Numbered from the whole stretch's first letter, positions 16,892 through 41,685 are shown. The stretch is DNA of 63,073 nucleotides, filler included, from Licmophora abbreviata (GCA_900291995.1; 15 parts of 15 records of this genome joined end to end with filler, not necessarily neighbours in it), one strand, 5' to 3'. Notes: a model not told the origin generated them from the letters alone. Made by a program: numbers and translations.

Positions 16892-17032
16892 GCATTCAGT
16901 CGAACAATGCCGTCATTCCTGCACTGCATGCGTCTGCGGACGCCATCCTTCAACTTCGGTCACACACCTTCTTGGCGTGCCGCCCGGTCGCATGCGCCCA
17001 TCCCAACACACTTCTTGATGGAGACGAAGATA

Positions 17033-18283: not shown

Positions 18284-18292
18284 GGCCAAAAG

Positions 18293-18317
18293 GGCGGGCA
18301 TCGACGCGGTGCCCGCC
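18293..18317 (+). other. Intercistronic stem-loop (probable mRNA stabiliser)
   Basis: GGCGGGCATCG-acg-CGGTGCCCGCC with no U-tract. Confidence 0.55.
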
Positions 18318-18343
18318 ACTCTCAAAGTCTTTCGGAGAGCGCA

Positions 18344-19237
18344 ATGTTTGAAGTCCTGTTCATCGGTCTGTCGCTGACATCTGTCCTGCTGCTTATCGCG
18401 TTGGGATTGTCCATAACCTACGGCGCCATGGGCGTCATCAACATGGCGCATGGCGAGTTGGTTATGATCGGCGCCTACACCGCGGTGTTGGCCGGTATCC
18501 ATCTTGGCTTCAATATCTTCCTGTCATTGCCCTTGGCTTTTGTGGTCGCCGCGCTTGTTGGGTTGCTGATCGAGCGGGTTGTCATTCGCAGGCTGTACGG
18601 GCGGATCATCGACACGCTGCTTGCCACCTGGGGTGTGGCGATCATCCTGCAGCAGCTTATCAGGCTGGAATTCGGGCTGACATTTTTCGGCATCAGTATC
18701 GAAGGGCTTGGCCCGGGTCTTCAGAACATGCGCGTGCCGACCTTCATGATGGAACCCTTCGATCTGATGGGTCTCTCCATCCAACCCTATCGGACCTTTA
18801 TCCTGTGCGTCACGATCCTGCTAACGGCGCTGACGTGGTACCTTGTGTATCGCACGGCCATCGGGGTGCAGGTGCGGGCGATCATGCGCAACCCCCAGAT
18901 GGCCGCGGCCTGCGGTATCGACGTGCGGCGCGTATCGGCCCTGACCTTCGCCTATGGATCGGGCCTCGCTGGCGTGGCCGGCGTTCTGCTGGCCGGGTTC
19001 CGCACGGTGATGCCCGAAATGGGGGCCACCGTTGTGGTTGACGGGTTCCTTGTCGTGGTGGTTGGCGGTGTAGGCAGCCTGTTGGGCACAATCCTGTCCT
19101 CCGCGCTTTTGGGGCAGATCAACGGGATCGTGTCGGTGTTTTCCAACGACATCATTGCGCGGGCCGTCGTATTTGGCGTGGTCATTGCCATCATCCTGTG
19201 GCGGCCGCGTGGTCTTTTCTCCTTCAAATCGAGGTAA
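18344..19237 (+). CDS. urtB: ABC permease UrtB-like
   Basis: GLSITYGAMGVINMAHGELVMIGAY, TLLATWG, FLVVVVGGVG. Confidence 0.8.
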   Translation: MFEVLFIGLSLTSVLLLIALGLSITYGAMGVINMAHGELVMIGAYTAVLAGIHLGFNIFLSLPLAFVVAALVGLLIERVVIRRLYGRIIDTLLATWGVAIILQQLIRLEFGLTFFGISIEGLGPGLQNMRVPTFMMEPFDLMGLSIQPYRTFILCVTILLTALTWYLVYRTAIGVQVRAIMRNPQMAAACGIDVRRVSALTFAYGSGLAGVAGVLLAGFRTVMPEMGATVVVDGFLVVVVGGVGSLLGTILSSALLGQINGIVSVFSNDIIARAVVFGVVIAIILWRPRGLFSFKSR

Positions 19238-19243
19238 GCGATC

Positions 19244-20392
19244 ATGTCCAACAGGATCTTCATCCTGGGTGATCGGGCTGTCTATGCAGCCTTCATCATC
19301 ATCGTCCTTGCGCTGCCGCTTCTGGTGGACGACGTCTTTTGGCTGAACCGGATCGCCAAATACCTTGTGTTCGGTATGCTCGGTCTCGCGATTGCGCTGT
19401 CCTGGGGCTATGCCGGCATTCTCAATCTGGGGCAGGGGCTGTTCTTTGGTCTTGGCGCCTACATGATCGCGATGTCGCTGAAGCTGCAAAGCTACACATC
19501 GCTGCAACAGGGCTCTGACAAGCCGATCCCCGATTTCATGTTGTGGAATGCCGAACCGGGCGCGCCGACCGATCTGTGCTGCATCACGCCCGGCTCGTGG
19601 TTGTGGATCCCCTTCCAGGCGCAATGGTTCGGGATGGCCATGGCGATTGTCGTTCCCGTCGTGTTTGCGTTGATCATCGGTTCCACCATCTTCCGTTTGC
19701 GGGTGTCCGGCGTCTATGTGGCGATCATCACGCTGGCGCTGGTGCTGCTGGCGCGGCTGTTGTTCATCGATCTGCAGCCGGTCACAAACGGGTTCAACGG
19801 CCTGACAGATCTTGGGTGGCTGACGATTGCGGGGATCGAATTCGATCCGTTCATGGTCGCGACCTATTATATCATCGCGGTTTCCGTCTGCGTGGTGTTG
19901 CTATTGTCACGCTGGCTGATCTCAACGCGCGCGGGGCTGATCCTGCAGTCGACGCGGGATGATCCCAATCGTTCGCGGTACCTTGGCTATGACGTGGCGT
20001 CCTACCAGGTCTTCTTCTTTACCGTCTCGGCAGGGATCGCCGGGTTTGCGGGGATGCTCTTTGTCATCGTATCGGAATTCGCGACGCCCACCTATTTCGA
20101 CATCGCCTTTTCGATCTCGATGGTGGTCTGGGCGGCGGTCGGGGGGCGCTCGTCGCTGATCGGCGCTGCTTTGGGAGCGATCCTGATCAATACGATCGAG
20201 GCCTCGGTGTCCGAAAGCGAGATGTTCCAGCAGGCGTGGCGACTGATCATCGGCATCGTGTTCGTCCTGGTGGTCCTGTTCATGCCGCGCGGTCTTGCCG
20301 GCTTGGCCCGTGACGCTCTGGCCCGCGTCGTCGCGTTGTCGCAGCGCTCGGGCGGCAAGGACAGCCAATCTTCCCACACCGCAGCCGAATAA
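19244..20392 (+). CDS. urtC: ABC permease UrtC-like
   Basis: WGYAGILNLGQGLFFGLGAY, PDFMLW, GVYVAIIT, AAVGGRSSL. Confidence 0.8.
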   Translation: MSNRIFILGDRAVYAAFIIIVLALPLLVDDVFWLNRIAKYLVFGMLGLAIALSWGYAGILNLGQGLFFGLGAYMIAMSLKLQSYTSLQQGSDKPIPDFMLWNAEPGAPTDLCCITPGSWLWIPFQAQWFGMAMAIVVPVVFALIIGSTIFRLRVSGVYVAIITLALVLLARLLFIDLQPVTNGFNGLTDLGWLTIAGIEFDPFMVATYYIIAVSVCVVLLLSRWLISTRAGLILQSTRDDPNRSRYLGYDVASYQVFFFTVSAGIAGFAGMLFVIVSEFATPTYFDIAFSISMVVWAAVGGRSSLIGAALGAILINTIEASVSESEMFQQAWRLIIGIVFVLVVLFMPRGLAGLARDALARVVALSQRSGGKDSQSSHTAAE

Positions 20393-20404
20393 GGGGGACA
20401 GCAC

Positions 20405-21286
20405 ATGAAAGCTGCATTGACGATCGAGGGGCTGGAGGTTGATTTCGGCGGCTTCAAGGCTGTGGATTCAATGACCACGGTGATAGATGACGGTGAATTG
20501 CGCGTCATCCTGGGCCCGAACGGCGCAGGCAAGACCACGCTGATGGATCTCATCAGCGGCAAGACGGCGGTGACGGGCGGGAAGGTTCACCTGTTTGGTC
20601 GTGACATCACCAATCGTCCTGAGCACGAGATCGCTCGGGCCGGGGTGGGGCGCAAGTTCCAGATCCCGTCGGTTTTCCGCGACCTGTCTGTTTTGCAAAA
20701 CCTTGAAGTGGCGGTCAGTCATGAGCCGCGTGTGTTTCGGAANNNNNNNNNNNNNNNNNNNNNNNNNNNNNNNNNNNNNNNNNNNNTTAATTAATTAANN
20801 NNNNNNNNNNNNNNNNNNNNNNNNNNNNNNNNNNNNNNNNNNGTGGCGGTCAGTCATGAGCCGCGTGTGTTTCGGAACCTGCGGCTTGGCATGAGCCGGG
20901 CCGACCGCAAGCGCATCGACGAGGTCATCGATCTGACCGGGCTGGGAGCGGTGCTCGACACTTTGGCAGGGGATCTCAGCCACGGTCAGATGCAATGGCT
21001 CGAACTCGGGATGCTCATCACGCAGCAATCGAAGGTGATCTTGCTGGATGAGCCGACGGCGGGCATGACGCAGGGCGAAACCTCGAAAACCGCCGATATC
21101 ATCCTGCGCTTGAAGGGCACGCATACCATCCTTGTCGTCGAGCATGACATGGCTTTCGTGCGCAAGATTGCCGAGAAAGTGACGGTCATGCATCTGGGCA
21201 AGTTGCTTGCGGAAGGGCCGATGCATGCGATCGAGGCAGACCCTGCCGTGCGCGACGCCTATCTTGGATCGGGAGGGTTGCATTGA
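20405..21286 (+). CDS. urtD: ABC ATP-binding UrtD-like (gap is a false join with a 35-bp overlap)
   Basis: GPNGAGKTT, GRKFQIPSVF, LSHGQMQWLELGM, LDEPTAGM. Confidence 0.85.
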
Positions 21287-21978
21287 TGCTGGCTCTACGC
21301 AACGTCAACAGCTTCTATGGCCGCAGTCAGGCATTGCATGACCTGAACTTCGATGCCCCAGAGGGTCAGATCGTGGCGATCCTCGGTCGTAACGGGGTCG
21401 GCAAAACAACGCTTTTGCGCACAATCATCGGGCTGACCGACCGCACCGAGGGGCAGATCGACCTGTCCGGGGTCGAGATCGGGTCCATGCCCACCTTCGC
21501 CAGGGCACGTGCGGGTATTGCCTATGTGCCGCAGGGCCGCATGATCATCCCTGATTTCAGCATTCGCGAGAATATCATGATGGGAGGGTTCGCCGCCTCC
21601 GGTCAGCGTCGTATTCCGGAGATCGTCGCGGAGCTGTTTCCTTACCTGATCGAGAACCTTGAACGCCCCGGCGGTGTGCTGTCCGGCGGCCAGCAACAGC
21701 AACTGGCCATTGCGCGCGCCTTGGCGTGCGATCCGAAGATCTTGCTCATGGATGAGCCGACGGAAGGTATCCAGCCCAATATCGTGCATCAGATCGAGGA
21801 TTGCATCATCCGACTGAACACGGAGCTTGGTCTGACGATCCTTCTGGTGGAGCAGAATGTCGATTTTGCAAAACGTGCGGCAAGCACATTCGCCATGATC
21901 GAGAACGGAACCAATGTCTCGGCAGGAAAAATCGAGGACCTGACCGAAGAGATCGTTTCGCGGCACATGGCGATCTGA
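21286..21978 (+). CDS. urtE: ABC ATP-binding UrtE-like
   Basis: GRNGVGKTT, YVPQGR, LSGGQQQQLAIARAL, DEPTEGIQP. Confidence 0.85.
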   Translation: MLALRNVNSFYGRSQALHDLNFDAPEGQIVAILGRNGVGKTTLLRTIIGLTDRTEGQIDLSGVEIGSMPTFARARAGIAYVPQGRMIIPDFSIRENIMMGGFAASGQRRIPEIVAELFPYLIENLERPGGVLSGGQQQQLAIARALACDPKILLMDEPTEGIQPNIVHQIEDCIIRLNTELGLTILLVEQNVDFAKRAASTFAMIENGTNVSAGKIEDLTEEIVSRHMAI

Positions 21979-22439
21979 TGGACATCTACACCTCCATACT
22001 CGGAACCGCGGACGCACCGGAGCATCACGATGCGCTGCACCATCTGGCGCATAAACACGCTGTGGATGTCGTGCGGCTGCCTCGCGCCGACCTAGCACGC
22101 CGTCGACTGCGGATCCGGACAGACGCAGGTCGCGAGGTCGCGATCGCCTTGCCCCGTGACCAGAAGCTGTTCGAGGGCGCTTTGCTGGCGCTGAAAGAGG
22201 ACAGCGCGCTGGTTGTGCGTGTCGAGACGGAGCGCTGGATCCGACTGGCGCCGCGCGACGCGGCGGCGGCACTCAGGCTTGGGTATTTCTGTGGCAACCT
22301 GCACTGGCGCGTCCGCTTTGAAGATGACGACCTCTGCGTTGCAGTGGAAACCGAAGAGCATGTCTATCTGGAGCGTCTGGAGGGCCTTCTGGAAGAGGGC
22401 GCCGTTGTTCTTGTGTCTGATAACGGAGAGGCGGGATGA
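21978..22439 (+). CDS. ureE: Urease accessory protein UreE-like
   Basis: RRRLRIRTDAGREVAIALPR and LGYFCGNLHW; first gene of the ure block. Confidence 0.8.
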   Translation: MDIYTSILGTADAPEHHDALHHLAHKHAVDVVRLPRADLARRRLRIRTDAGREVAIALPRDQKLFEGALLALKEDSALVVRVETERWIRLAPRDAAAALRLGYFCGNLHWRVRFEDDDLCVAVETEEHVYLERLEGLLEEGAVVLVSDNGEAG

Positions 22440-23122
22440 CGTCTAAGACTGGCACCGCCATTCGGCTGTTGCAGGTTTCGGATTCGGCCTTTCCCTCGGG
22501 TGCGTTCGCGTTTTCGTCCGGTTTGGAAACGCTAGTGAACGAGGGGCGCATACACGATGCAGCGGATATCCGTGCTGTTCTGACGGGTCAGGTTCTGCCC
22601 CGTTGGGCAAGTTTCGACCGCCCTTTCCTGCAGGCGGCCCATGCCGCCGAGGCGGACATCGCGCGATTGGCCGAGATCGACGAACGCTGTCATGCTCAAA
22701 ACAGTGCAGACCGTTTGGCCGAGGCGGCACGGCGTATCGGCAGGTCGCTTCTTTCGGTGCACGCCCGGATCGGGACACGGGGCACGGCAGAATATCGCGC
22801 GGCGACAAGTGGGCCGGATTTGCGGGATAGGACCGGGTATGAACCCGTGGTGCAGGGTCTGATCGGGTTCGGACTGGGTTTGAGTGCCGCTCAGACTGAA
22901 ATGAGCGCGCTGCACACTGTCACGATGGGGTTCGTTTCGGCCGCCATACGTTTGGGTCGGCTTGGCGCAATAGAGGCACAGGCCGTTCTGGCCGCTGCCG
23001 CGCCAGAGATGGCGGACATCCTTGATAGCCCTGTTCCGGCGCGCCCCGGAGCGTTTTCGCCCTTCGCAGAAATCGCGGCCCTGCGCCGAAGCACGGGCAA
23101 TGCCAACCTGTTCGCCACATGA
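22436..23122 (+). CDS. ureF: Urease accessory protein UreF
   Basis: LLQVSDSAFPSGAFAFSSGLE, SAAIRLG, C-terminal LFAT. Confidence 0.9.
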   Translation: MTSKTGTAIRLLQVSDSAFPSGAFAFSSGLETLVNEGRIHDAADIRAVLTGQVLPRWASFDRPFLQAAHAAEADIARLAEIDERCHAQNSADRLAEAARRIGRSLLSVHARIGTRGTAEYRAATSGPDLRDRTGYEPVVQGLIGFGLGLSAAQTEMSALHTVTMGFVSAAIRLGRLGAIEAQAVLAAAAPEMADILDSPVPARPGAFSPFAEIAALRRSTGNANLFAT

Positions 23123-23136
23123 TGAAAGTTTGATCC

Positions 23137-23799
23137 ATGCTGCTGACACCCACGGAACTTGAGCGATTGACGATCTTCACCGCAGCGGAACTTGCTCGCA
23201 AGCGACGTGCGCGCGGCCTTCGGCTGAATGCGCCGGAGGCGGTTGCGCTGATTGCCGATGAAATCCTGGAAGGTGCGCGCGACGGCTCGTCGGTCGCGGC
23301 CATGATCAGTTTCGGATCGACCGTGCTGAGCACCGACGATGTGATGCCCGGTGTCGCAGACCTTTTGCCGATGATCCAGGTGGAGGCGGTCTTTCCCGAT
23401 GGCACAAAGCTGGTCACGGTGCACGATCCGATCCGCCCCGGTGACTTGCCGCTTGACGATACGGTGGGCCGTCCGGGAGAAATTCGCGCAGCCGAGGGCG
23501 AGATCGAACTCAATGCGGGCCGTGAAAAGGCAACCTTGACGGTGAAGAACACCGGCGATCGTCCGGTTCAGGTTGGCAGCCACTATCACTTCTTCGAGAC
23601 GAACAAGGCGCTCGATTTCNNNNNNNNNNNNNNNNNNNNNNNNNNNNNNNNNNNNNNNNNNNNTTAATTAATTAANNNNNNNNNNNNNNNNNNNNNNNNN
23701 NNNNNNNNNNNNNNNNNNNGACTGAACAACCTGACGCGAGGTGAAGGCAAAGAGGCGGCTTTGGAGCGTGCGCGCGCCGCAGGATTCAAGGGAGCCTGA
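23137..23799 (+). CDS. ureAB: Fused urease gamma/beta subunit, interrupted by gap
   Basis: [35 protein letters not shown] continuing in frame into [21 protein letters not shown]; after the gap [21 protein letters not shown]. Confidence 0.9.
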
Positions 23800-23801
23800 C
23801 C

Positions 23802-25514
23802 ATGGTATCGATGACCCGAGCAGACTATGCCGCGATGTTTGGCCCGACCAAGGGCGACATGATCCGGCTTGCCGATACGGAATTATGGGCTGAGATCGAG
23901 CACGACTACACATCCTACGGCGATGAATGCTTGCATGGTGGCGGCAAGACCCTGCGCGATGGTCTGGGTATGGCCGTTGGCGTGACAAGTGCTCAGGGCG
24001 CCTTGGATATGCTGATCTGCAACGTGGTGGTGATCGATGCAGTGGCGGGTATCGTGAAGGGCGATATCGGCATCAAGGATGGTCGTATCGTGGCCATCGG
24101 CAAGGCCGGCAATCCCGATGTGATGAACGGTGTTGACCCGCGCCTGATTGTGGGGGCGAGCACCACGGTGCGTGACGCCGAGGGTCTTATCGCGACAGCG
24201 GGCGCGATTGACGTGCATGTGCATTTCGATAGTGCGCAGCTTGTGGAACACGCGATGTCTTCGGGCATTACGACCATGCTGGGCGGATCGCTTGGCCCGA
24301 TCACGGTGGGGATCGATTGCGGCGGTGTCTTCAATGTCGGCAAGATGATTCAGGCGTCCCAGGAATGGCCGATGAATTTCGGGTTTCTGGGTCGTGGCAA
24401 TGCGCATCGTCCCGAAGCGATGCATGAACAAATCCAAAATGGGGCGCTTGGCCTGAAGATCCATGAGGATTGGGGTGCGATGCCTGCCGCCATCGATACC
24501 TGCCTCAGCGTGGCCGACGAGTTGGATTTTCAGGTTCAGATCCACACGGACACGCTCAATGAAAGCGGATTTCTGGAAAATACGCTTGCGGCGATCGGCG
24601 ACCGTGTCATCCACATGTACCACACCGAAGGGGCCGGCGGCGGACATGCGCCGGACATCATCCGCGTCGCGGGTATCGCGAATTGCCTTCCGTCGTCTAC
24701 CAATCCGACCAATCCCTTTACCGTCAATACGTTCGACGAACATCTCGACATGACGATGGTGTGCCACCATCTGAACCCGTCGATCCCCGAGGACGTGGCT
24801 TTCGCCGAAAGCCGGATCCGTGCGCAGACCATCGCCGCCGAAGACATTCTGCACGACATGGGGGCGATCTCGATGCTGGGGTCGGACAGTCAGGGCATGG
24901 GGCGCATTCATGAGGTGATCTGCCGGACATGGCAGCTTGCATCCAAGATGCGGGTGCAACGGGGACGATTGCCCGAAGAAACGTCGGCGAAGGGAGATAA
25001 CCTCAGGATCAAGCGCTATATCGCCAAATACACGATCAATGCCGCGAGATGCTTTGGGATAGAGGCGCATGTCGGCTCGATAGAGCCCGGAAAGATGGCC
25101 GATATCGTCCTGTGGCGTCCCGGCTATTTCGGCATAAAGCCCGAACTTGTGGTCAAGGGAGGCTTTATCGCATGGGGTGCGATGGGCGACAGCGCCGCAT
25201 CGCTGATGACCTGCGAGCCACTTGTCATGCGACCGCAATGGGGCGCGTTCGGTCGTGCCGCCCCGACGCTTGGCGCCTGCTTTGTGAACCCGCGTGCCAT
25301 CGAGGGCGGACTGCAGGAGGAGCTGGACATCTGCAAGCCCTTGTTGCCGGCAGTCGGCTGTCGTGGCTTGAGCAAGCGGGACATGCTGCTGAACGACGCG
25401 CTTCCGGATATCCGCGTTGATCCGGCGACATTTGATGTCTTCGTTGATGGCGTTCTGGCGACCTGTGACCCCGCAACGGAGCTTCCCCTGACGCAAAGGT
25501 ACATGCTCCGATGA
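23802..25514 (+). CDS. ureC: Urease alpha subunit-like nickel amidohydrolase (divergent pocket)
   Basis: [52 protein letters not shown]. Confidence 0.92.
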
Positions 25515-26170
25515 CCGATAGCGCACCTATTCCCGAACGCCTTGCCACAGGACCCGCGCGCGTGGGTATCGGAGGGCCGGTCGGTTCGGGCAAGACGGCC
25601 CTGATCGAGGCGCTGATCCCGATTTTCCACGAGCGTGGCATCGAGGTGGCGGTCGTGACGAATGATCTTGTCACCAAGGAAGATGCCCGTCGCTTGCAAG
25701 CGGGTGGGCTGATCGATCCACAGCGGGTTGTGGCCGTGGAGGCGGGGGCCTGTCCGCATACCGTCATCCGGGAGGACCCTACGCTGAACATCGCCGCAGC
25801 CGACGATCTGGAGGCGCGGTTTCCCGATCTGGATCTGATCCTGATCGAAAGCGGCGGGGACAATCTTGCGTCGACCTTCTCGCTCGATCTGGTGGACTGG
25901 TGGATGTTCGTCATCGATGTGGGGCAGGGGGATGACATCCCGCGCAAGCGCGGGCCGGGGATCATGCTGTGCGATCTGCTGGTCATCAACAAGCTGGACA
26001 TCGCCCCGCATGTCTTCGTCGATGCCGCGTCGATCCTGTCGGAAGCGCGCGATGTGCGTGCGGGAAAACCTGTCATAGGCTGTCGTTGCAAAGGCGCGCA
26101 GACAGAGGGCTTGACCGATATCGCCGACGCGATCGTGCGCGACCTTCTGTTTCGGGATGTTGTGACATGA
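25511..26170 (+). CDS. ureG: Urease accessory GTPase UreG
   Basis: [25 protein letters not shown]. Confidence 0.93.
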
Positions 26171-26994
26171 ACGTGGCGCACGTCCCGTCCCGGGCACGCA
26201 GTGTGCACGGCGAGTTGACCTTTGCCTGCGTCTCGGGGCGGACGCATCTGATGCGCCAGCATACGCCGCATCCATTTCACATCACGCGCCCGTTTCGTCA
26301 TCCCTGCGACCCTCAAGGAATGGTCACGCTTTACCTGCAGAGCTCTTCCGGGGGGGTATATGGGGACGATGATCTGGCGTTGTCTGTCGGTCTGAAGCCC
26401 GGCTCAGCGGTTCACCTGACCACGCAGGCATCAACCGTGGTGCATGATGCGCGGGGGCGCGACGGGGCCAGCCAGACCATATCACTGGACGTGGGCGCGG
26501 GCGCTTTGCTGGAATACGTGCCGGACCCGGCGATCATGATGGCTGGATCACGGCTCAAGACCCGCATCCATGCAAATCTGGCCGACGGCGCGAAGGTCCT
26601 GTTGGCTGACGCGCAGCTTTGCCATGACCCCGAAGACAATGGCCGACCTTTCGATGCGTTGGAGTGCGAGGTTGCCATTACGGCTGCGGGCAAAACGCTT
26701 TTGCTGGACCGTTTCGAATTGCAGGGTGCCGACTGGTTGACCCGCACCGGGGGCTATCGCTGTGCCGGGATGATGCTTGTCGCTGGCGATACGCGGCCCG
26801 GCGCAGCGATGCTCGATGCGGCAGCCAGCGTTCCGGGCGTCTATGCGGGTCTGTCGAACCTCGCAGATCGCGAGGTGACCATAGTGCGCTTTCTTGCGGA
26901 GGACGGTGTCGCTCTCAGTCGTGCGCTCAAGGCCATTTGGATGGCCGCACGCGAGGCAATGACCGGAGACATTCCCGTGGCACGCCGCAAATAG
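26167..26994 (+). CDS. ureD: Urease accessory protein UreD/UreH
   Basis: [26 protein letters not shown]. Confidence 0.88.
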
Positions 26995-27100
26995 CGGTGG
27001 CCGACTTTTATCGCTGCGGGAAACGGTCCCGTGGTTAAACCAGTGCTGGCTTTGTTTTTGCGCTTCGCCGGCACGCATGTGACGAAAGAGGAGAGACGAG

Positions 27101-28144
27101 ATGTATCATGGTGATATCGGAAGCAGCAATGACACGGTCGGGGTCGCCGTCGTCAACTACAAGATGCCACGAATGCATACCAAAGCAGAAGTGATCGAAA
27201 ACTGCCACAAGATCGCCGACATGCTCAAGGGGATGAAAAAGGGATTGCCCGGTATGGATCTGGCGATTTTCCCTGAATATTCGACCCAAGGGATCATGTA
27301 CGACGAAACCGAGATGTACGAGACGGCTGCGGCCATCCCAGGGGAAGAGACCGAAATATTCGCGGCTGCCTGTCGCGAAGCGAATGTCTGGGCTGTGTTC
27401 TCGCTCACCGGGGAACGCCACGAGGAGCACCCCAAGAAGGCGCCGTACAATACGCTCATCCTGATGAACAACAAGGGCGAGATCGTACAGAAATACCGCA
27501 AGATCATGCCTTGGGTGCCGATAGAGGGCTGGTATCCGGGCAACTGCACCTATGTCAGCGAAGGCCCCAAGGGCATGAAGATCAGCCTGATTATCTGCGA
27601 TGATGGCAACTACCCAGAGATCTGGCGGGATTGCGCCATGAAGGGCGCGGAACTGATCATTCGGTGTCAGGGCTACATGTATCCGGCAAAGGATCAGCAG
27701 ATTGTCATGGCCAAGGCCATGGCTTGGGCCAACAACAGCTATGTGGCTGTCGCCAATGCCACGGGCTTTGACGGCGTCTACAGCTATTTTGGTCATTCCA
27801 GCATCATCGGCTTCGACGGGCGCACGCTCGGTGAGTGCGGCACAGAGGAAATGGGCATCCAGTTTGCTCAGCTCTCCGTGTCCATGATCCGCGACGCGCG
27901 CCGCACGATGCAATCCAACAACCATTTGTTCAAGCTGGTTCACCGTGGCTACACCGGCATGATCAACTCGGGTGATGGGGATAAGGGCGCGGCAGAACTG
28001 CCCTATGATTTCTACCGCAAGTGGGTCGAAGATCCCGAAGGCACACGTGAAATGGTCGAGGCGATGACCCGCCCCACGGTGGGGACATCTGAATCGCCCA
28101 TCGAAGGCCTGCCAAACGAGAGCACGGACAAAGCGCATCGCTGA
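27101..28144 (+). CDS. amiE: Aliphatic amidase (nitrilase superfamily)
   Basis: [22 protein letters not shown]; Glu-Lys-Cys triad in [33 protein letters not shown]. Confidence 0.95.
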
Positions 28145-28157
28145 CCTTCGTTCCCAG

Positions 28158-28179
28158 ATCCGGGGGTTTGGCCCCGGAT
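28158..28179 (+). other. Intercistronic stem-loop after amiE
   Basis: ATCCGGGG-gtttgg-CCCCGGAT with no U-tract. Confidence 0.5.
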
Positions 28180-28225
28180 GCGCTGGCGGCCCGTTGCCGC
28201 CAGCGACTTCACCGATGGAGAGATC

Positions 28226-29035
28226 ATGACAACCAGCCCTCTGCTTGATGCCTATCGTTTGACGGAAGAACCCAAATGGTACCCGACGGGAGAAGAGGTT
28301 GCGCAATTTACTGCGGCTTATTCCGTGCGGCTACCTGTCATGCTGAAAGGGCCGACAGGCTGTGGGAAGACGCGGTTTGTCGAACATATGGCGTCGCGAC
28401 TGGATCGACCGCTGGTCACCGTGTCCTGCCATGAGGACATGACAGCTTCCGATCTTGTCGGACGTTATCTGCTGGGACCGGATGGCACGATTTGGCAAGA
28501 TGGCCCTTTGACGCTTGCCGTCCGTCATGGCGGGATCTGTTATCTCGATGAGATTGTGGAAGCCCGGCAGGATACGACTGTCATCATTCACGCGCTGACG
28601 GATGACAGACGCATTCTGCCACTTGAAAAGAAGGGCGAGTTGGTACGGGCGCATCCTGATTTTCAACTCGTGATTTCATACAACCCTGGCTATCAATCCG
28701 TGCTCAAAGATCTCAAGGAATCCACCAAGCAGCGGTTCTGTGCCCTGGATTTTGACTACCCTGCAACCGAGATCGAGACCTCGATCGTTGCCGCAGAAGC
28801 AGGTATCCCCAGTGCGACCGCTGCGGTTCTGGTCAAGATTGGCGAGAAAAGTCGCAATCTGCGTGGGCAGGGCCTGAGCGAGGGGGCTTCTACGCGGATG
28901 CTGATCCATACCGGGCGGTTGATGCAGCAGGGCCTGACACTGCCTGAGGCATGTCGCTTGGCCATGATAACCCCCATAACCGACGACCCCGACATGCGCG
29001 CCGCACTCGAGGCTGCGGTCGATGCCTGTAGCTGA
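28226..29035 (+). CDS. CbbQ/NirQ/NorQ-family MoxR AAA+ ATPase
   Basis: LKGPTGCGKTRFVEHMA, CHEDMTASDLVGRYL, CYLDEIVEARQDT, SYNPGYQ, LKESTKQRF, STRML. Confidence 0.93.
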   Translation: MTTSPLLDAYRLTEEPKWYPTGEEVAQFTAAYSVRLPVMLKGPTGCGKTRFVEHMASRLDRPLVTVSCHEDMTASDLVGRYLLGPDGTIWQDGPLTLAVRHGGICYLDEIVEARQDTTVIIHALTDDRRILPLEKKGELVRAHPDFQLVISYNPGYQSVLKDLKESTKQRFCALDFDYPATEIETSIVAAEAGIPSATAAVLVKIGEKSRNLRGQGLSEGASTRMLIHTGRLMQQGLTLPEACRLAMITPITDDPDMRAALEAAVDACS

Positions 29036-31361
29036 CATGGTTGCCGCGTCGCCCAATACCCTGGTTCAGGCGGCAACGCGGTCCGCGTTTCCCGGTCATA
29101 CGCTGACGGAGTTCCTGTCGGCTCATGATCGTCTGACCAAGGCGGGATATGGGGTTGCAGTGCCACGCAGCTTCCTGCAGGCGGCGCCAGATGTCGCCAG
29201 GCTTGTCGGCACGGATCAGGCGCTGGCCCTTGCTCCGGCGGCGTCGCGCATCGCGATACGAAGCAGCCCCCGGACGGCGGCGGTCTTCCTTGACCTGACG
29301 GTGCCGATGTCTCGCAGGCTTGGAGAGCCGCAGGCGTTTTCCAGTTGGGTCCAGCTTGTCATTTCGCTTGTCAACGCCGCGCCGGAATCGGTGGATCCGC
29401 TGCTTTCAAGAGCCGAGATGCTGGATGAGCGTCTGGGACTGGACGGCTTGAAAGCTTGGGTGCAATCGGGTTTGCGGTTGGGCGGAGGCGACGAACGCAA
29501 GCGACAGCAGTACTTTTCGCTGGACATGATCGAAGCGCAAAGACTTCTGGAACGCTATGCCGGCGAAGAGACATTCCAGAGCCTCGAGAGTGAATTGCGC
29601 GCAGGTCACAGGGCGCTTTGGGGACGCATGCCGCCGCTCCGCGAAGCGCTTCCGTTGGGCAAGGGGCAAGCCGAATTGCGTGCAAGCTTCGGTGGCGGCG
29701 TTGTGCAGCTTCCTGCCAGCTTCAGTGGATACCGCGGGCGTGAAAGGTCGGTCTACAAGGCCGCTCTTGCTCATATCGGGGCGCATATGGCCTATGGCGG
29801 TTCAAGCTTTCACGTTGGGCAACTCAAGCCTTTGCAGATCGCTGTCGTATCCCTGATTGAAGATGCACGGGTCGAATATCTGGCCATGCGTGAAATGCCG
29901 GGGCTTTCGCGGCTCTGGCTGCCTTTTCATGATGTCTCACCCGACGGGATGGCGACGGCACCATCGCTTTTTGCGCGGCTGGCTCGCGCCTTGCTGGATC
30001 NNNNNNNNNNNNNNNNNNNNNNNNNNNNNNNNNNNNNNNNNNNNTTAATTAATTAANNNNNNNNNNNNNNNNNNNNNNNNNNNNNNNNNNNNNNNNNNNN
30101 CCATGGCTGGGTGCAAAAGGGCGTGACCATGTTTACCGAGGGCATTGAGCAGATCGGTAACCCCGCCTTGTCGCGCCATATCGGAAATATCCTTGGAAAC
30201 GATCTTGGCCAGACACGGGTTCAGTTCAATGCCCGCAACTATGTCGTGCAGCCTGCTTACCGCGATGACAATCTTGGTCTGTGGGATTTGCCGCCGGAAC
30301 CAAACGCGCCCCCGCAGCAACACCAGTTCGAGATAAACACCTTCGACCGGCGTGAAACCGAGACGCAGGATAGCCCGCAAAAGCGTAAACAGGGGCAGTC
30401 CGATCAAGCGCATGATAGCGGTGTCGAAGCAGTCACATCGGCCCGGCTGGAGCCCAGTACCGGTCGTGTGGTCGCGCACTTGCCGGAATATGACTTCACG
30501 GCAGGTATCGAACGCCCCGATTGGGTCACGGTGAAGGAATACGAGCCCGGCCCCGGCGATCCGCTCTTCTGGCACAAGCTGAAGGAGCGTCAGGCCGTCT
30601 TGCTCGCGCGTATCGGTGAGATGGTCCGTGCCGCGTCTCTTGGACGGGCGCGTCGGCTGAAGCGGCAGGCCGAAGGCGGGGCGCTGGACCTTGATGCCAC
30701 GATCGAGGCCGCCATCAACCTGAGATCCAGGCAGACGCCCGATCTGAACGTCTATGAGGGTGTGTCACGGCCCGAAAGGTCCATCGCGGTCCACCTGTTG
30801 CTCGATATATCCCAGTCGACCGAGGACCCTGTTGAAGCAGCCGGGGCGAGTGTGATCAGCCTCTTGCGCGAGGCGTCGGCCGTGCTTGCCCATGCGATGG
30901 ACAGGTTGGGCGATCCGCTTGCGATCACGGCCTTCTCATCGGACGGGCGCGATGATCTGCGCGTGGTCCACGTCAAGCGGTTCGAGGACGAGTTGACCCC
31001 GCTCACGGGCATGGCGCTCTCGGGGCTGCGCGCCGGATACTCGACACGGATCGGAGCAGCCATTCGCTATGCGGGCGCGAAACTTGCCAAGATTCCGTGC
31101 CATCGGCGGCTGGTTCTTGTCGTGACGGATGGAGAGCCTTCTGACGTGGATGTGTCTGACCCTGACTATCTCGCGATGGATGCCAAGCGCGCGGTGCAGT
31201 CGCTCAACGCGTCCGGGATCGATGTCTTCTGCATAGCTTTGGGACACGCAGCCGGCCAACGGCATGGCGAAATCTTTTCGCGACGTGGATTCCTTCAGTT
31301 GGACCGATTGGACGCGCTGCCCACGAAACTTCCTGCACTTTATCTGAGGATGGCCAGATAA
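29022..31361 (+). CDS. CbbO/NorD-like von Willebrand A protein, interrupted by gap
   Basis: IEDARVE, LPEYD, LDLDATI, MIDAS LLDISQST, YSTRIGAAIR, VTDGEPSDVD; overlaps the AAA+ gene. Confidence 0.9.
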
Positions 31362-31427
31362 GCGCATCTGGCAATTGAAAACCAACCTTGGCTGCTTCTG
31401 GGCCGACAATGGGAAAGGAGACACTTC

Positions 31428-32414
31428 ATGAACTGGCTGGAACATTCTGTCATGGCCCGAAAAGGCGTGGCAAAGGGAAAGGCGGGTGAACACCACGAGA
31501 TCACTATCGCTGACCAGGGTACGTTTCACTATGTCTATGGCCCTTTCGTCGACCCTGTCCTGAAAGTGTCGCCGGGGGCAGTGGTTTCGGTAGAGACCCA
31601 TGACGCTTTCGAGGGCAAGATCACCAGCGAAAGCGACAAGCCTTCCGAACGGTTGAATTTTCCGTATCTCAATCCGCAGACCGGCCCGATCCATGTGGAA
31701 GGTGCGGAAAAGGGGGATGCTCTTGCGGTACGGATCATATCCATCAAGCCGCGTGGTCCGCAGCCAGTTGGTACAACCTGTCTCATTCCGGAATTCGGTG
31801 GTCTGGTGGGAACCGGCAACACCGCGATGTTGAACGCGCCGCTGGATGAAGTGGTCAGAAAGATCCGCGTCGACGAAACCGGCATTCACTGGTCCGACAG
31901 ATTGGTGTTGCCCTATGAGCCGTTTATCGGAACCATTGGCACCTCGCCCGAGATCGAGGCGATTTCCTCGCTTCAGCCGGACTATTACGGTGGCAACATG
32001 GATATGCCGGATGTTGCCCCGGGTGCGATCATCTATTTGCCGGTCAATCGCGAGGGTGGATATCTTTACCTTGGCGATTGTCATGCAATTCAAGGGGATG
32101 GGGAGCTTTGCGGAGTCGCGCTTGAAATTCCCGCGACGGTGGAATTGCAGATCGACCTGATAAAGGGGCATGGCAACAGCTGGCCGCAGCTGGAAACCGA
32201 GGACATGATGATGTTCATCGGCTCCGCCCGTCCGCTGGAGGATGCCACACGCATTGCTTATCGTGAGCTCGTTCGTTGGCTGGCGCTGGAGACCGATCAG
32301 AGCGAAGTCGACGCCTATATGCTTCTGACAATGTGCGGGAAGGTTCGTCTGGGGAACATGGTGGACCCGAAATACAGCGTCGGGGCGTCAATCGCGAAGC
32401 GCTATCTGAAATAG
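31428..32414 (+). CDS. Acetamidase/formamidase family protein
   Basis: ETHDAF, NPQTGPIHVEGAEKGD, GGNMD, GDCHAIQGDGELCGVALE. Confidence 0.9.
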   Translation: MNWLEHSVMARKGVAKGKAGEHHEITIADQGTFHYVYGPFVDPVLKVSPGAVVSVETHDAFEGKITSESDKPSERLNFPYLNPQTGPIHVEGAEKGDALAVRIISIKPRGPQPVGTTCLIPEFGGLVGTGNTAMLNAPLDEVVRKIRVDETGIHWSDRLVLPYEPFIGTIGTSPEIEAISSLQPDYYGGNMDMPDVAPGAIIYLPVNREGGYLYLGDCHAIQGDGELCGVALEIPATVELQIDLIKGHGNSWPQLETEDMMMFIGSARPLEDATRIAYRELVRWLALETDQSEVDAYMLLTMCGKVRLGNMVDPKYSVGASIAKRYLK

Positions 32415-32545
32415 CATTCTCAATCAGGGTTGCGGACCGTGGACCTTGGATTGAAGACCCCGCCTTCGTCCGGACGTATCAGAGCAAGCCTCTTAAGAGC
32501 CCCACCGCACAGCTTCCTGAAATTCTCAACATGAAAGGACATATC

Positions 32546-34082
32546 ATGACCGACGACACAACAGTTCCGGCAGGCGCCGCATCCATCGAGCTTGCCAACC
32601 TCACAGTCAAAGGCATTCAAGAGGGCCTTCGCAGCGGTGCATTCACCGCAGAGGCGCTCACCCTGGCATCACTTGCGCAAGTCGAGGCAACGAACCCGAA
32701 ATACAACGCGATCATCTTTCACAACAAAGACGCTGCGCTGGAAACCGCACGAGATGTGGATCGTCGCATCGCGGCAGGCGAGGATCTTGGGCCGCTGGCA
32801 GGGGTGCCTGTCGTGGTGAAAGACCCCATGGATATGGTTGGTTTCCCGACGACGGCGGGATGGCGACTGTTGTATTCGGGAGCCGGAGGNNNNNNNNNNN
32901 NNNNNNNNNNNNNNNNNNNNNNNNNNNNNNNNNTTAATTAATTAANNNNNNNNNNNNNNNNNNNNNNNNNNNNNNNNNNNNNNNNNNNNTGACAGTTGGG
33001 CCGGACCGACACTGAATGTTGCCATAGAAGACCGTGTTCCCGGCGGCTCCAGTGCAGGAACAGCCGCAGCGGTTGCCGCAAAGATGTGTGTGCTCGGTCT
33101 GGCAGAGGAAACAGGCGGGTCCATTCAGAACCCGGCCTCGGCGCAAGGTTTGGTGGGAATAAAGCCGACAATTGGTCTGGTGCCGAATGCCGGTGTCGTG
33201 CCCTTGTCCGCAAATCGTGACGTGGTCGGTCCGATTGCGCGCACAGTCACCGATGCGGCCATATGCCTTGATATTCTTGCAGGCTACAGCAGCGAAGATC
33301 CCAAAACACTGGCGAGCGTGGGGAAAATTCCTGCCAAAGGCTATACCGCAGCGCTTTCTAAAGACGCGCTGAAAGGCAAGCGGATCGGATTGTACGGCTC
33401 AGGTTGGCGCAATCAGCCGCTTTGCCCTGAAACAACGGCACTCTATGAACAGGCTCAAGAAGAGCTGACAGCCGCCGGCGCCATTCTGGTCGAAGATCCG
33501 TTTGCCGGGAGCGGCTTTGCGGATTTGCGTCAACCCACGGCGCCCACACCGAATTTCGACGGACGGGGACTGGAGTCGATCGCGTACGATCTGCAGTCTT
33601 ACCTGCGGCGCCTCGGTCCTGATGCCGCGCTCAAGACTTTTGCTGAATTTGCCGAAGCGACTTCTGAAGAGAACCCCTTTGGGCCAGAGGGCGTGTTGTA
33701 TTTCCTCAATTCGCTCCCGGATTTCCAGGCGGCTATGCTTGACCCGACCGCGCCGCCGGCCATGCCGGAGTTCATAGCCCTGAAGGCGGCTTATCTGGAT
33801 ATCCTCGAGACTGTCTTCCGCGAGCATAGCCTAGATTCCCTCATCTTTCCGCAAATGCGTCAAGAATTGCCGGGCCTGCATTCCGGAGAGACGATCCAGG
33901 AAACGACCGTCGGAGAGCTAAATATTGCGGGTCTTCCAGGGGTGACAGTGCCTGCCGGTTTCTATGCATCCTCGGCGCCTTTTGAACTGATCTTCCTCGG
34001 TCGGTTGTGGGACGAGGCGGAATTGCTGGCTCAGGCGTTTGCGTATGAACAGGCGGCAGGGGCTGGCGGGTCGATGAAATAG
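32546..34082 (+). CDS. Amidase-signature (Ser-cisSer-Lys) amidase, interrupted by gap
   Basis: GPLAGVPVVVKD, PGGSSAGTA, EETGGSIQNPAS, GIKPTIG. Confidence 0.88.
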
Positions 34083-38961: not shown

Positions 38962-41685
38962 ATGACAAGATTTTTCTTAGCCCTTACACTTATGTGCGCC
39001 GCAACTGCCGCTTTGGCGCAGGATCGCGGAACGATCCTTGTTCTGGATGGGTCCGGGTCGATGTGGGCGCAATTGCCCGAAGGCCGGTCGCGGATCGAGG
39101 TGGCCCGCGACGTGCTCGACGATTTTCTGACCGCGCGCGATAAAGCGCAGCCACTGGGTGTCATTGCCTATGGCCATAACCGCCGCGGTGATTGCAGCGA
39201 TATCGAAACCATCGCCCCGGTAGGCATGCAGGAGGGTCGTGCCCTTGGCGAGCGCCTGCGCGGGTTGAACCCCCGGGGCAAGACGCCCCTGGCCGACGCG
39301 CTGCGTCGTGCCGCCGCCGAAATCCCGCGCACCGCCGAAGAGGCCGATATCGTGCTGGTCACCGACGGGTTGGAAACCTGCGGCGGCGATCCTTGCGCGG
39401 TGGCCGCCGAACTGGCCGCCCAAGGCATCCCCATTCGCGCCCATGTGGTCGGCTTTGGCCTGACCGAGGCTGAGGTCCAGCAGATCGCCTGCGTGGCCGA
39501 ACAGACTGGCGGTATGGTACTGGCCACTCAATCGGGCGCGGAGCTGACCGACGCCTTGGTGCGCACGGCCTCCGCCCCTGTGGACGCGCCAGACCAGCCG
39601 GGCGTGGCGGCCATCGCTCTGTCGATCCGTGCCGATATCGCCGGGCGGCCGGATCGGGTCGCCTTTCGTGCGGTGAGCGAGGCGACGGGCGAAACGCTGG
39701 AGCTCGGGGTTCTGGATTTCGCGACCGCCGGGGCGCTGACGGTCGAACTGGCCGAAGGCAACTGGCTGATTAAGGCGGATGCCGGCGATCAGGGCAACGG
39801 CGAAATCGCGGTTGCCATCGATGCAGGCGACAATCGCGCGATCTATGTCCCGTTTCGCGGGCTGCTGCCCAGTCTCGACATGCCCGCCCCGACCGGGGCC
39901 TTTCGGGCGGGCATAAATGGCCTGATCCCCTATCGGATCACCGAGGAAGGTCTGGCAACCGGCGGCGGTGACTTCATTTTCTCGCTTCTGCCGCTCGATG
40001 CGGTCGATACCGCCGATCGCCGGATCGACTATTCCACTCAGGCGAGCCAGATTGGGTCCCATGTCGGGGCCTTCCGCACCCCGGGCGAACCCGGCGATTA
40101 CCTGCTGGTGTTCCACCGAAACGCTGCGATGCCGATCGACGAGGTGATGGAGCGATTTGTCATCACGGTCGAACCCCGCCCCGAGGTGCGCCTGATCGCG
40201 CCCCCGGCCGTTGAACCCGGCGCAAGGGTGCCTGTCAGCATTGCCGGTGGCATGGGCAACTCCGACCGCATCGAAATCTGGCGCGACGGGGCGCTGGTGT
40301 CATGGGATCAGAGCATCTACGTTCAGGACTTTTTCGACAATGGTTACGGTCCGGCAAAACCGTTGCTCGCCCCGACCGAGCCCGGTGACTATGACCTGGT
40401 CTATGTCTTCAGCGAAATCGACGGCCCCGACGCGGTCGCGGCGCGCGTTCCCCTGACGGTCGGCGTGGTTCCCGAGCTTGACGAGGCTGGGGTGGCGGCC
40501 CCGTCTGACAAACCGATCCGTCAGGCAGACGCGGCATCAGTTGCGGCGGAACAGATCAGCGAAGATATCGCCTATGCCTGTCCCGCCGAAGAAGGGTTTC
40601 CCTGTTTCTTCGACGATCCTGCCACCGGGCTTGTCTTTGCCTTGCCGCCCGGTTGGGTCACGGATTTTCCCACCCGCGAGGCGGCAACTGCAGGCGGTCA
40701 GCCCGGCCCGGTGCGCGTCACCTTTTTCAGCACCGGCGACCCGGTCGAAACGATTGTCCTGAACCCGCACCAATGGACAACAATGAACGGCCCCTGCAGC
40801 GAGATGCAGCCCGGCTCCCTGTGCTGGTTCACCACCGATAGCGCGGAATTGACCCGCGCGCTCGAGATCCTGCGCCGCGCGATCCGCGACATGGGCCCAC
40901 CGACCGATGCGGCCGAAGTCGCCCCGGCACCACCAGCGGACGGCCACGGGTTTGACGGGAAAACTGATGGTCGCCCGTGGTCGACCTATCCTTACCGCTG
41001 CCTGCCCGATGACCGCCCCGAGGGCCTGTGCGAATTCACCGATGAGGCCACCGGACTGGCCATGTATCTGCCCGACAATTGGGTGGCCGAGGTCACCCCG
41101 GGGCCCGACGGCCCGCGCGCCGACTTCTTCGAGGTGACGGGCGCGGCGCGATCCGCCTATCTCAACCCTGCGAACTGGCCAACGCCGGATCAGGGCTGTT
41201 TTGCCACGCGGGCAGGCGATCTTTGCGTCCTTGCCGATGCCATCGACGCCGGGTTCGAAGAACCGCTGTCGATCCTGCAACGGTACCTTAGAACCGGTGA
41301 CGTGCTGCGCACCTGCGGCCAAGAGCCCTGCGATTACCTGTTGCCCTGGCGCGGGTTCATGGGGACTTTGCCGGGTTATTGGGGCGTGGAATTCCCGCAA
41401 GAAAACAGGCAGGGCACCCTGACTGGCTGGTTCTACGGCACTTTCGGTTCCGATCCTGTCAAGATCATCGGGCTGAACCAGCCCGGTGGCGAGAACTGCG
41501 TAGAGGCTTTTGAGGGCGCCGAACTCTGCGCGTTCACCCCTTATATCTCGACCGAAGAGATGGAGGTCATCCGCAGCACCTTGCGGATTGCGCCGCCCCC
41601 GCTGCCGGGCACCATCGGAACCCCGTCAGGCAAAGTCGACTATCGGGAGATCGACCGCGTTCTGTCGATTATCAAAGGGAATTGA
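38962..41685 (+). CDS. Secreted vWA-domain protein with three Cys-rich C-terminal repeats
   Basis: Signal peptide; MIDAS LDGSGSM, GKTPL, VTDGLETCGGDPC. Confidence 0.85.
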   Translation: MTRFFLALTLMCAATAALAQDRGTILVLDGSGSMWAQLPEGRSRIEVARDVLDDFLTARDKAQPLGVIAYGHNRRGDCSDIETIAPVGMQEGRALGERLRGLNPRGKTPLADALRRAAAEIPRTAEEADIVLVTDGLETCGGDPCAVAAELAAQGIPIRAHVVGFGLTEAEVQQIACVAEQTGGMVLATQSGAELTDALVRTASAPVDAPDQPGVAAIALSIRADIAGRPDRVAFRAVSEATGETLELGVLDFATAGALTVELAEGNWLIKADAGDQGNGEIAVAIDAGDNRAIYVPFRGLLPSLDMPAPTGAFRAGINGLIPYRITEEGLATGGGDFIFSLLPLDAVDTADRRIDYSTQASQIGSHVGAFRTPGEPGDYLLVFHRNAAMPIDEVMERFVITVEPRPEVRLIAPPAVEPGARVPVSIAGGMGNSDRIEIWRDGALVSWDQSIYVQDFFDNGYGPAKPLLAPTEPGDYDLVYVFSEIDGPDAVAARVPLTVGVVPELDEAGVAAPSDKPIRQADAASVAAEQISEDIAYACPAEEGFPCFFDDPATGLVFALPPGWVTDFPTREAATAGGQPGPVRVTFFSTGDPVETIVLNPHQWTTMNGPCSEMQPGSLCWFTTDSAELTRALEILRRAIRDMGPPTDAAEVAPAPPADGHGFDGKTDGRPWSTYPYRCLPDDRPEGLCEFTDEATGLAMYLPDNWVAEVTPGPDGPRADFFEVTGAARSAYLNPANWPTPDQGCFATRAGDLCVLADAIDAGFEEPLSILQRYLRTGDVLRTCGQEPCDYLLPWRGFMGTLPGYWGVEFPQENRQGTLTGWFYGTFGSDPVKIIGLNQPGGENCVEAFEGAELCAFTPYISTEEMEVIRSTLRIAPPPLPGTIGTPSGKVDYREIDRVLSIIKGN

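Follow-up and report, generated by a model that had tools for sequence, protein, structure and literature searches.

A CbbQ/CbbO-like AAA+ ATPase and adaptor pair linked to aliphatic amidase genes, with AmiE as a candidate client carrying the Rubisco-type C-terminal tail

[quoted passage not shown] We found that this ATPase–adaptor pair resembles the Rubisco repair system CbbQ/CbbO (CbbQO), that related pairs recur beside amiE, and that the amidases linked to them end in the same His-Lys/Arg dipeptide as the Rubiscos associated with CbbQO. Based on these comparisons, we consider AmiE a probable client of a CbbQO-type remodeller (probability of roughly 0.75). We know of just two established client classes for MoxR–VWA systems of the CbbQ/NorQ type, namely Rubisco (repair) and nitric oxide (NO) reductase (iron insertion). 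To our knowledge, the assignment of the adaptor to the CbbO side, the breadth of the linkage, the partition of AmiE proteins between the Clp-like ATPase AmiB and a CbbQO-like pair, the orphan adaptors found beside amiE and, above all, the client tag in common are new here; the gene arrangement itself is already known in passing (PMC13209695).

The window AmiE (347 aa; NF009802 at 702.9 bits, above the NCBIfam equivalog cut-off of 427) terminates in KAHR, and the codons of His346-Arg347, the proposed client tag, lie at 28136–28141. Among AmiE proteins linked to the pair (n = 72), the last two residues were HR in 68, HK in 3 and HS in 1 (H[RK] in 71/72); His occupied position −2 in 72/72, with positions −3 to −7 variable (entropy of 2.2–2.9 bits) and tail length variable as well. 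The large subunits of Rubisco (RbcL) encoded beside CbbQ/CbbO (n = 23) ended HK in 15, HR in 6 and HA in 2, giving the tag in 21/23, a likeness shared by Rubisco there and the putative client AmiE here. Such an ending was found in just 3 of 1,862 other called genes across all loci, and in none of the UreC (0/21), UreAB (0/21), FmdA (0/19), amidase-signature (0/10) or NorB (0/37) proteins; the FmdA-like and amidase-signature proteins encoded after the adaptor in the window, and in the closest genome examined (G001), likewise have no H[KR] end. An HK/R tail has been described as the mark of cbbQO-associated Rubiscos (Tsai et al. 2015, PMC4660213). In that system, shortening the Rubisco tail by one or two residues or extending it by one alanine abolished both activation and ATPase stimulation, the penultimate His was critical and the final residue replaceable, and the C-terminal peptide alone stimulated the ATPase (PMC4660213).

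The tag also co-varied with the pair. At the genome level, pair and tag occurred together in 76 genomes and were both absent from 19; the pair occurred without the tag in 1 (L010, ending HS), and the tag without the pair in 0. AmiE proteins from genomes without CbbQ_C ended in SNY, NDR, AAK, DPR or DPH, and 5/5 phylogenetically independent contrasts tied the tag to the pair. We then examined a second sample of 400 genomes from another class, 12 of which carry amiE (10 of these new). The tag was present in 7 AmiE proteins, 6 of which had an AAA gene or an adaptor no farther than 1.5 kb away, and absent from 5, which had a nearby adaptor in 0/5 and AmiB in 4/5. In three genomes (G608, G563 and G798; loci L223, L225 and L228, respectively), a shorter adaptor (ORFs, or open reading frames, of 616–633 aa, 37–40% identity) stood directly after amiE with no AAA gene nearby, and the CbbQ_C genes of these genomes lay elsewhere, beside other VWA genes. 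These orphan adaptors may borrow or share the motor of the Rubisco or NO reductase systems.

We investigated the conservation of the linkage with an amiE-centred survey of the best 80 of 596 amiE stretches (contigs from one genome per species) with 8-kb flanks. All counts of AAA, adaptor, AmiE, AmiB and RbcL genes rest on tblastn, because the gene caller, which uses an amino-acid-composition score (GC content at third codon positions is unsuitable in this 59% GC genome), misses some genes (for instance, it overlooks ureE, labels certain AAA genes as antisense 'c27' and labels RbcL as 'c66'). An AAA gene and/or an adaptor was found within 8 kb in 65 of the best 80 loci, arranged in tandem in 39 (one overlapping), convergent and adjacent in 10, convergent and spaced in 12, and spaced on the same strand in 4; the intervening genes in the spaced arrangements were often those of urease. 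The pair-amiE loci span Alpha-, Beta- and Gammaproteobacteria as well as one Terriglobia metagenome-assembled genome (MAG). Among the loci of this set without the pair, 9 had adequate and 6 had short flanks; when five pair-less loci were traced in their own genomes, an adaptor (40–46% identity) was present in 5/5, located approximately 11 kb from amiE in 3. In an unbiased phylum sample of 301 genomes, amiE occurred in 23, and the pair adjoined it in 6/23 (G001, G412, G417, G407, G386 and G215), with the Clp-like AmiB after amiE in 7/23. The association with amiE, which the initial annotation had noticed at this single locus, is conserved in both sets.

The same family of motors was sampled independently of amiE in 151 genomes (one per genus), where 47 CbbQ_C matches were distributed as 34 beside norCB, 9 beside rbcL, 3 near amiE and 1 weak match left unplaced; none of the 47 stood with urease alone. 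The module also occurs on plasmids (41 records, 6 of them conjugative and 3 mobilizable). In the RefSeq annotation of Rhizobium etli pRsp8C3a and of a plasmid from Roseibium aggregatum, urtBCDE precedes genes for an aliphatic amidase, a CbbQ-family protein and a VWA protein, in this order, and urease is absent. On the conjugative R. etli plasmid (315513-331666, L215), an acetate–coenzyme A ligase gene (acs) directly follows the adaptor gene, an order which fits a module converting acetamide to acetyl-coenzyme A.

Phylogenetic analysis of AmiE (107 rows) separated the two kinds of helper. A 10-row clade (support 100) carried AmiB directly after amiE in 10/10 (tblastn), and its tails were never H[KR] (0/10); on the other side of the tree (96 rows), the CbbQO-like pair was a linked neighbor of 72, and its losses were scattered. 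AmiB, known from Pseudomonas-type amiEBCRS operons, resembles the window ATPase in being an AAA+ protein encoded directly after amiE (10 loci here), but it belongs to another AAA+ clade (AAA_2 + ClpB_D2-small; partial ClpB match of 234 bits) and has no VWA partner, whereas the window ATPase scored only 18 bits against ClpA and does not have the AmiB architecture. AmiB itself is described as poorly understood and as a suggested chaperone (PMC12591593). These data fit a pair that occupies the place of AmiB in other AmiE lineages; the initial proposal that the pair replaces AmiB and works on AmiE thereby gains strong comparative support from the linkage, from the confinement of AmiB to a different AmiE clade and from the tail tag. 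The catalytic residues E59, K134 and C166 were invariant in the AmiE alignment, and the best solved relatives of the window enzyme are 2plq and 2uxy. Within the AmiE body, only Y73M, Y302F, P312A, G314K and I334V distinguished pair-linked from AmiB-linked proteins; the difference that proved telling was the final dipeptide.

Two further genes recur near some amiE-pair loci (L036:1504-7935, L039:14241-16191, L050 and L158:2955-10971): 'c43' (~450–560 aa, at most 3 copies) and 'c44' (~108 aa), neither of which matches a Pfam or NCBIfam family. Found alongside them are the cobalt transporter subunit CbtA, a peroxiredoxin-like gene and a CobW-like GTPase. One of these loci, L158 in genome G015 (G015:C1:2500000-2518000), combines both systems: besides amiE-amiB-amiC-amiR there is an AAA/adaptor pair on the opposite strand, 5 kb upstream, with c43, c44 and CbtA at its flanks; the AmiE of this locus is a member of the AmiB clade and ends EAD.

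The window ATPase probably starts at ATG 28226 (the longest ORF opens at 28178), just after a GGAGAG, giving a product of 269 aa; its relatives measure 264–269 aa and cover 88–94% of the query. It carries AAA_5 (PF07728, 120.4 bits) followed by CbbQ_C (PF08406, 104.5 bits), as does the CbbQ motor, with intact Walker A (GPTGCGKT, residues 58–65, 28349–28372) and Walker B (YLDE, residues 122–125, 28541–28552) motifs. This architecture and the VWA partner downstream place it in the MoxR group of CbbQ, NirQ, NorQ and GvpN. [quoted passage not shown] CbbQ/CbbO has a like layout: the AAA gene stands right behind the gene of the client, and the adaptor gene comes next, either in overlap with the AAA gene or immediately after it. 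Although NorQ has the same Pfam architecture, the best solved matches of the window ATPase were CbbQ chains (5c3c, 383 bits; 6l1q, 377 bits; versus 310 and 308 bits for NorQ). In the AAA tree (141 rows, high-scoring segment pairs of at least 200 aa), 38 rows of NorQ made up one side with a support of 90, and the motors linked to amiE were located on the opposite, CbbQ side. No NCBIfam model names the pair; in public records the relatives appear as 'NorQ' for the ATPase and as 'VWA domain-containing protein' or 'NorD' for the adaptor.

The adaptor is encoded by a single gene. ORFs 29022–30056 and 30111–31361, which give the gene a split look in the window, share one frame, and the pieces in the window (N-terminal part 29022–30000, C-terminal part 30101–31361) correspond to residues 1–326 (96% identity) and 333–751 (98.3%) of one 751-aa ORF in G001. 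An artificial linker (30001–30100) lies between them, concealing approximately 6 codons and marking no biological break. The VWA match (30.7 bits) falls in 30111–31361 and contains a perfect MIDAS, as in CbbO, with D567, S569, S571 (DxSxS, 30804–30818), T647 (31044–31046) and D675 (31128–31130) all present. The DxSxS triad is kept in 57–58 of 59 amiE-linked adaptors, and T647 and D675 are kept in 54/55 and 55/55, respectively, of the rows with a residue at that position (the other 4/59 are gapped). Residues 1–520 matched 23/23 Rubisco-linked CbbO proteins (~27% identity over ~500 aa, E values of 5e-26 to 3e-52), whereas the best E value against 32 NorD proteins was 0.46, indicating an unrelated N-domain in NorD. 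A motif, H251-x3-H255...E280-D281-x-R283 (H251xxxH255 at 29772–29786 and E280 at 29859–29861, in the middle domain), was common to 23/23 CbbO and absent from NorD. The adaptor is also in the length class of CbbO: median lengths were 757 aa for amiE-linked (n = 59), 775 aa for rbc-linked (n = 23), 646 aa for nor-linked (n = 32) and 708 aa for other adaptors (n = 13).

We examined the predicted structure of the adaptor using AlphaFold2 (AF2). The model (mean predicted local distance difference test score, pLDDT, of 85.6) comprises helical repeats (12–200), a middle domain (206–395), a disordered linker (400–449), a two-stranded beta finger (454–479; 30465–30542) and the VWA domain (488–751). In structure searches, the C-terminal part of the model came closest to the VWA domain and finger of solved NorD (9qh6_G, E = 2.8e-18, template modelling score of 0.78 on the target), consistent with the finger and VWA architecture described for NorQD (PMC13036017, PMC9976466), and to this extent the adaptor is like NorD. 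A separate AF2 model of the N-terminal 398 residues reached a pLDDT of 93.2, and a Foldseek search with it against the PDB returned none at E ≤ 0.001. With VIA-align, residues 12–182 matched only designed helical repeats (Z up to 10.6), and residues 182–386 (L002:13180-14373; window 29565–30000 and on) gave weak zincin-like matches (Z of 4.9–6.1), namely Ste24 (Z of 5.7–6.1), selecase (Z of 5.1) and abylysin (Z of 4.9). The middle domain common to CbbO and the amiE-linked adaptors has an HxxxH and a Glu 25 residues further on, and the catalytic Glu of HExxH is absent; judging from these models, this domain may represent a degenerate zincin that binds metal.

The adaptor tree (126 rows, rooted on NorD) united amiE-linked and Rubisco-linked adaptors in one clade with a Shimodaira–Hasegawa-like approximate likelihood ratio test (SH-aLRT) support of 100. 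Within it, the CbbO clade (SH-aLRT 98, 30 rows) leaves out the window adaptor and 57 other amiE-linked adaptors, and its sole amiE-labelled member, L083, sits in a true cbb operon (RbcL at L083:8263-9678). Of the amiE-linked adaptors, 55 grouped together (support 83), and three others branched apart in a polytomy. By sequence, the pair is CbbQO-like and not NorQD-like, and the adaptor belongs to a sister family of CbbO; the CbbQ half of the initial "CbbQ/NorQ-type" label holds, on the N-domain, the adaptor tree and the solved matches, and the NorQ half does not. Separately, we observed another clade of CbbQ_C AAA and VWA genes (L098, L100, L109, L110, L112, L115, L128, L208–L212 and L214; support of 99 for the AAA and 100 for the adaptor), which has no nor, rbc or amiE neighbor and an adaptor N-domain that matches neither CbbO nor NorD.

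No Rubisco (RuBisCO_large), COX1/NorB or NorC was found among the called genes of the window (Pfam/NCBIfam), as the initial annotation had reported for its 63 kb, and norCB, the neighbor of NorQ/NorD, is accordingly absent. G001 gave no RbcL match and merely 18 bits with a NorB query, and its one CbbQ_C gene in total is that of the amiE-linked pair; neither of the two established clients is at hand in this genome. The system at amiE differs from CbbQ/CbbO in its neighbor, a nitrilase-superfamily thiol amidase in place of Rubisco.

Previous reports describe CbbQO and NorQD as a hexameric motor with one adaptor, the VWA finger in the pore and the MIDAS metal on an acidic client residue (PMC5437159, PMC4660213, PMC13036017, PMC9976466); in CbbQO, the HK/R tail of the client is held in a specific pocket, and productive binding stimulates ATP hydrolysis, remodelling the client (PMC5437159, PMC4660213). 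By analogy with CbbQ6-CbbO1, the AAA+ hexamer at amiE would carry one adaptor, which would plug into the ring by way of its VWA domain and beta finger and grip AmiE through the MIDAS metal on an acidic surface residue. The complex would also read the extreme C-terminus of AmiE, ...His-Arg-COOH, and ATP hydrolysis would pull or twist the AmiE hexamer, loosening it. The likeliest purpose would be to reopen dead-end active sites, for example those in which an amide analogue such as urea is bound tightly or covalently at Cys166; aid to hexamer assembly is a less likely purpose. Physical binding, ATP-driven remodelling and the nature of the inhibited state are what we infer here. This mechanism in its entirety seems to us somewhat likelier to be right than wrong, and the boldest reading, in which AmiE is a true client of a CbbQO-type activase and is recognised just as Rubisco is, by MIDAS contact and by the C-terminal His-Lys/Arg tag, is put forward tentatively, at slightly under even odds.

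AmiE-type amidases are inhibited by urea and hydroxyurea, with urea acting slowly. Urea would fit as the inhibitor because the operon also imports and hydrolyses urea. Repair is favored over assembly because the adaptor is the sister of CbbO, because the tag is one that is read on mature, inhibited Rubisco, because AmiE has no cofactor to insert, and because related AmiE proteins work without the pair. The same linkage and tag evidence could be claimed for a one-time assembly or maturation chaperone, which would promote hexamer formation or subunit folding of AmiE in the manner of NorQD and would not act repeatedly; MoxR–VWA pairs do include maturation factors such as NorQD (PMC9976466, PMC13036017), 'assembly/activation' has been suggested for this arrangement (PMC13209695), and a chaperone role has been raised as a possibility for AmiB (PMC12591593). 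However, AmiE relies on a Cys-Glu-Lys triad and, unlike NO reductase, offers no metal site to fill, the client-side N-domain of the adaptor is homologous to that of a repair factor and not to NorD, and close AmiE relatives function in pair-less genomes, all of which make a pure assembly role unlikely, though worth some weight.

A different client within the cluster, either the nickel enzyme urease or an FmdA/AmdA-type acetamidase, would turn amiE into a mere neighbor, and the initial annotation had offered both as alternatives. The pair is indeed separated from amiE in 16 of the best 80 loci, with a urease cluster intervening in at least 9 of these 16 spaced loci and a lone UreE-like gene in 4 others, an FmdA-like gene comes after the adaptor in the window, and MoxR–VWA systems often serve metalloenzymes (PMC13036017, PMC9976466). 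Against this stand the absence of any CbbQ_C gene with urease minus amiE in the family sample, many loci and the two annotated plasmids with pair and amiE but no urease or FmdA in reach, the complete UreDEFG set already encoded in the window, and the lack of the H[KR] tail in all of these enzymes; we regard such clients as extremely unlikely. Slightly less remote, but still very improbable, is the absence of any functional tie, with pair and amiE co-travelling on mobile DNA or the pair serving a Rubisco or NO reductase encoded elsewhere. The occurrence of the module on conjugative and mobilizable plasmids and the frequent public annotation of its genes as NorQ/NorD speak for this view, yet the linkage persists through at least four gene arrangements and across the proteobacterial classes and the Terriglobia MAG mentioned above, the adaptors branch as a group apart, next to CbbO, the AmiE tail co-varies with the pair, and G001 has neither Rubisco nor NorB.

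Several observations weigh against AmiE as a CbbQO-type client. The 80-locus set is biased toward query-like AmiE, and in the phylum sample 10/23 amiE genomes had neither the pair nor AmiB beside amiE; 9 of those 10 were without any CbbQ_C, and the tenth (G316) has a nor-linked CbbQ_C. AmiE as a whole can do without the pair. The number of independent contrasts is only 5, for which the sign test gives p = 0.0625 (the best attainable with five), L010 has the pair with an HS tail, and G589 has an HR-tailed AmiE without a dedicated adaptor, its only CbbO (31% identity) being on another contig. No acidic AmiE residue, as a candidate for the MIDAS contact, separated pair-linked from AmiB-linked AmiE. 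A literature search on urea and hydroxyurea inhibition of AmiE returned nothing relevant, and no physiological dead-end inhibitor is documented here. The AAA tree, in addition, mixes amiE-linked and Rubisco-linked motors: a CbbQ clade with a support of 99 is surrounded by amiE-linked rows and itself includes 11 rows labelled amiE, one a true CbbQ (L083) and 10 truly amiE-linked, and the AAA of L126 falls beside NorQ. Co-folding of adaptor residues 100–751 with AmiE (own alignments) scored 0.00 in both runs, which counts neither for nor against binding. As an observation on L126 itself (G417:C26:1-13000), the branch of its amiE-adjacent AAA is long (0.95), neither tblastn nor the gene calls detected an adaptor behind this gene, and the copy may have diverged or be in decay.

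A literature search for a link between amidases and MoxR ATPases yielded PMC13209695 only. This report (Microorganisms 2026) describes Pseudomonas veronii plasmid pYu-LOS15-16 with amiE, amiC and amiR, an AAA_5/CbbQ_C gene and a 'NorD-like' gene, and states, in one sentence on one plasmid, that the two proteins could act in amidase assembly or activation, with their roles unclear; its accessible text contains no survey, phylogeny, CbbO assignment, tail tag or experiment on the pair. CbbQ/CbbO-like pairs without Rubisco association have been noted, with amidases unnamed in the available portions of these sources (PMC5437159, PMC4633670); the word 'amidase' is absent from the accessible text of the CbbQ survey (PMC4633670). 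The idea of a new client class of MoxR–VWA systems, raised in the initial annotation, is supported by the comparative data, but had already been suggested in that one sentence of PMC13209695.

If AmiE is a client, the HK/R-COOH tail would be the code by which AAA+ remodellers of this class know their clients in general, with client choice residing in the CbbO-like adaptor and the CbbQ motor being interchangeable. A third, unrelated and metal-free client bearing the CbbQO tag would show that recognition by tag plus MIDAS is portable, and the shared tag would supply a simple sequence rule for finding more clients. It would also mean that a metal-free thiol amidase shares with Rubisco a liability to dead-end inhibition in vivo, perhaps caused by urea, for which ATP-driven repair is needed. 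Aliphatic amidases have industrial uses and serve as diagnostic markers, and an inhibited state would be implied for them. AmiE would furthermore serve as a soluble, easily assayed model for substrate remodelling by these motors, a rationale would be offered for the long-unexplained AmiB, and the widespread misannotation of relatives as NorQ/NorD would be corrected.

In the window, a draft scaffold, contigs of approximately 2–6 kb are connected by 14 artificial 100-nt joints (3720–55963), each consisting of an N run, TTAATTAATTAA and a second N run (for example at 20743–20842, 23620–23719, 30001–30100 and 32890–32989). At the urtD joint, the identical 11 residues VAVSHEPRVFR are read on either side of the linker, from which it follows that the contig ends overlap; the split look of urtD, ureAB, the adaptor and the amidase is an assembly artefact. 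A single contig (23720–30000) holds amiE, the AAA gene and adaptor codons 1–326, and the C-terminal part of the adaptor and the FmdA-like gene are on the following contig, an order corroborated by G001 (~95% nucleotide identity, 99% complete), in which the gene order is identical and gapless. In addition, a 16.8-kb DNA contig of run X1 spans 27101–30000 and extends beyond.

All genes of this amide/urea cluster are on the + strand. An amiC-like gene (14935–16104; Peripla_BP_5, 414 bits) and amiR (16104–16709; AmiR_N, 125 bits, and ANTAR, 55 bits), a pair also found 5' of amiE in many related loci, are followed by a urtABCDE-type ABC transporter (16907–21978) and by ureE, ureF, ureAB, ureC, ureG and ureD (21801–26994). 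Both sets were identified using Pfam/NCBIfam and have gapless counterparts in G001; two of these context genes (16907–26994) are interrupted by assembly linkers in the window. After amiE, the ATPase and the adaptor come a short FmdA/AmdA-family gene (31428–32414; FmdA_AmdA, 123.1 bits) and an amidase-signature enzyme (~32500–34082), which is interrupted by the linker at 32890–32989 and has a 522-aa counterpart in G001. The FmdA/AmdA-family protein measures 328 aa here and in G001, compared with ~409 aa for a typical FmdA, and reached 73.8 bits where the NCBIfam formamidase cut-off is 500; among related loci, close copies of it were found only in G001 and L004.

The 81-nt spacer between amiE and the AAA gene contains two adjacent GC-rich hairpins (28158–28205). 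The predicted fold of 28140–28230 has an energy of −44 kcal/mol (z = −3.6 versus 200 shuffles), with no U-tract after the hairpins, which may attenuate or process the transcript and lower the expression of the helper relative to amiE. A promoter and terminator scan of 26800–32600 gave nothing above shuffle level. Small contigs of an RNA library span both gene junctions at ~96% identity, weak support given possible DNA carry-over. In run X15, the whole stretch is in one 15.9-kb contig that is possibly DNA, and run X16 has no contig over 29235–30000; such contigs cannot tell level, strand or transcript ends.

Elsewhere in the window, we noted a second, unrelated VWA protein (38962–41685; 907 aa, N-terminal VWA_2), with no AAA partner noted alongside, and, on the − strand (1525–3717), a 730-aa protein combining DUF642 and RTX calcium-binding repeats with a C-terminal Hint domain.

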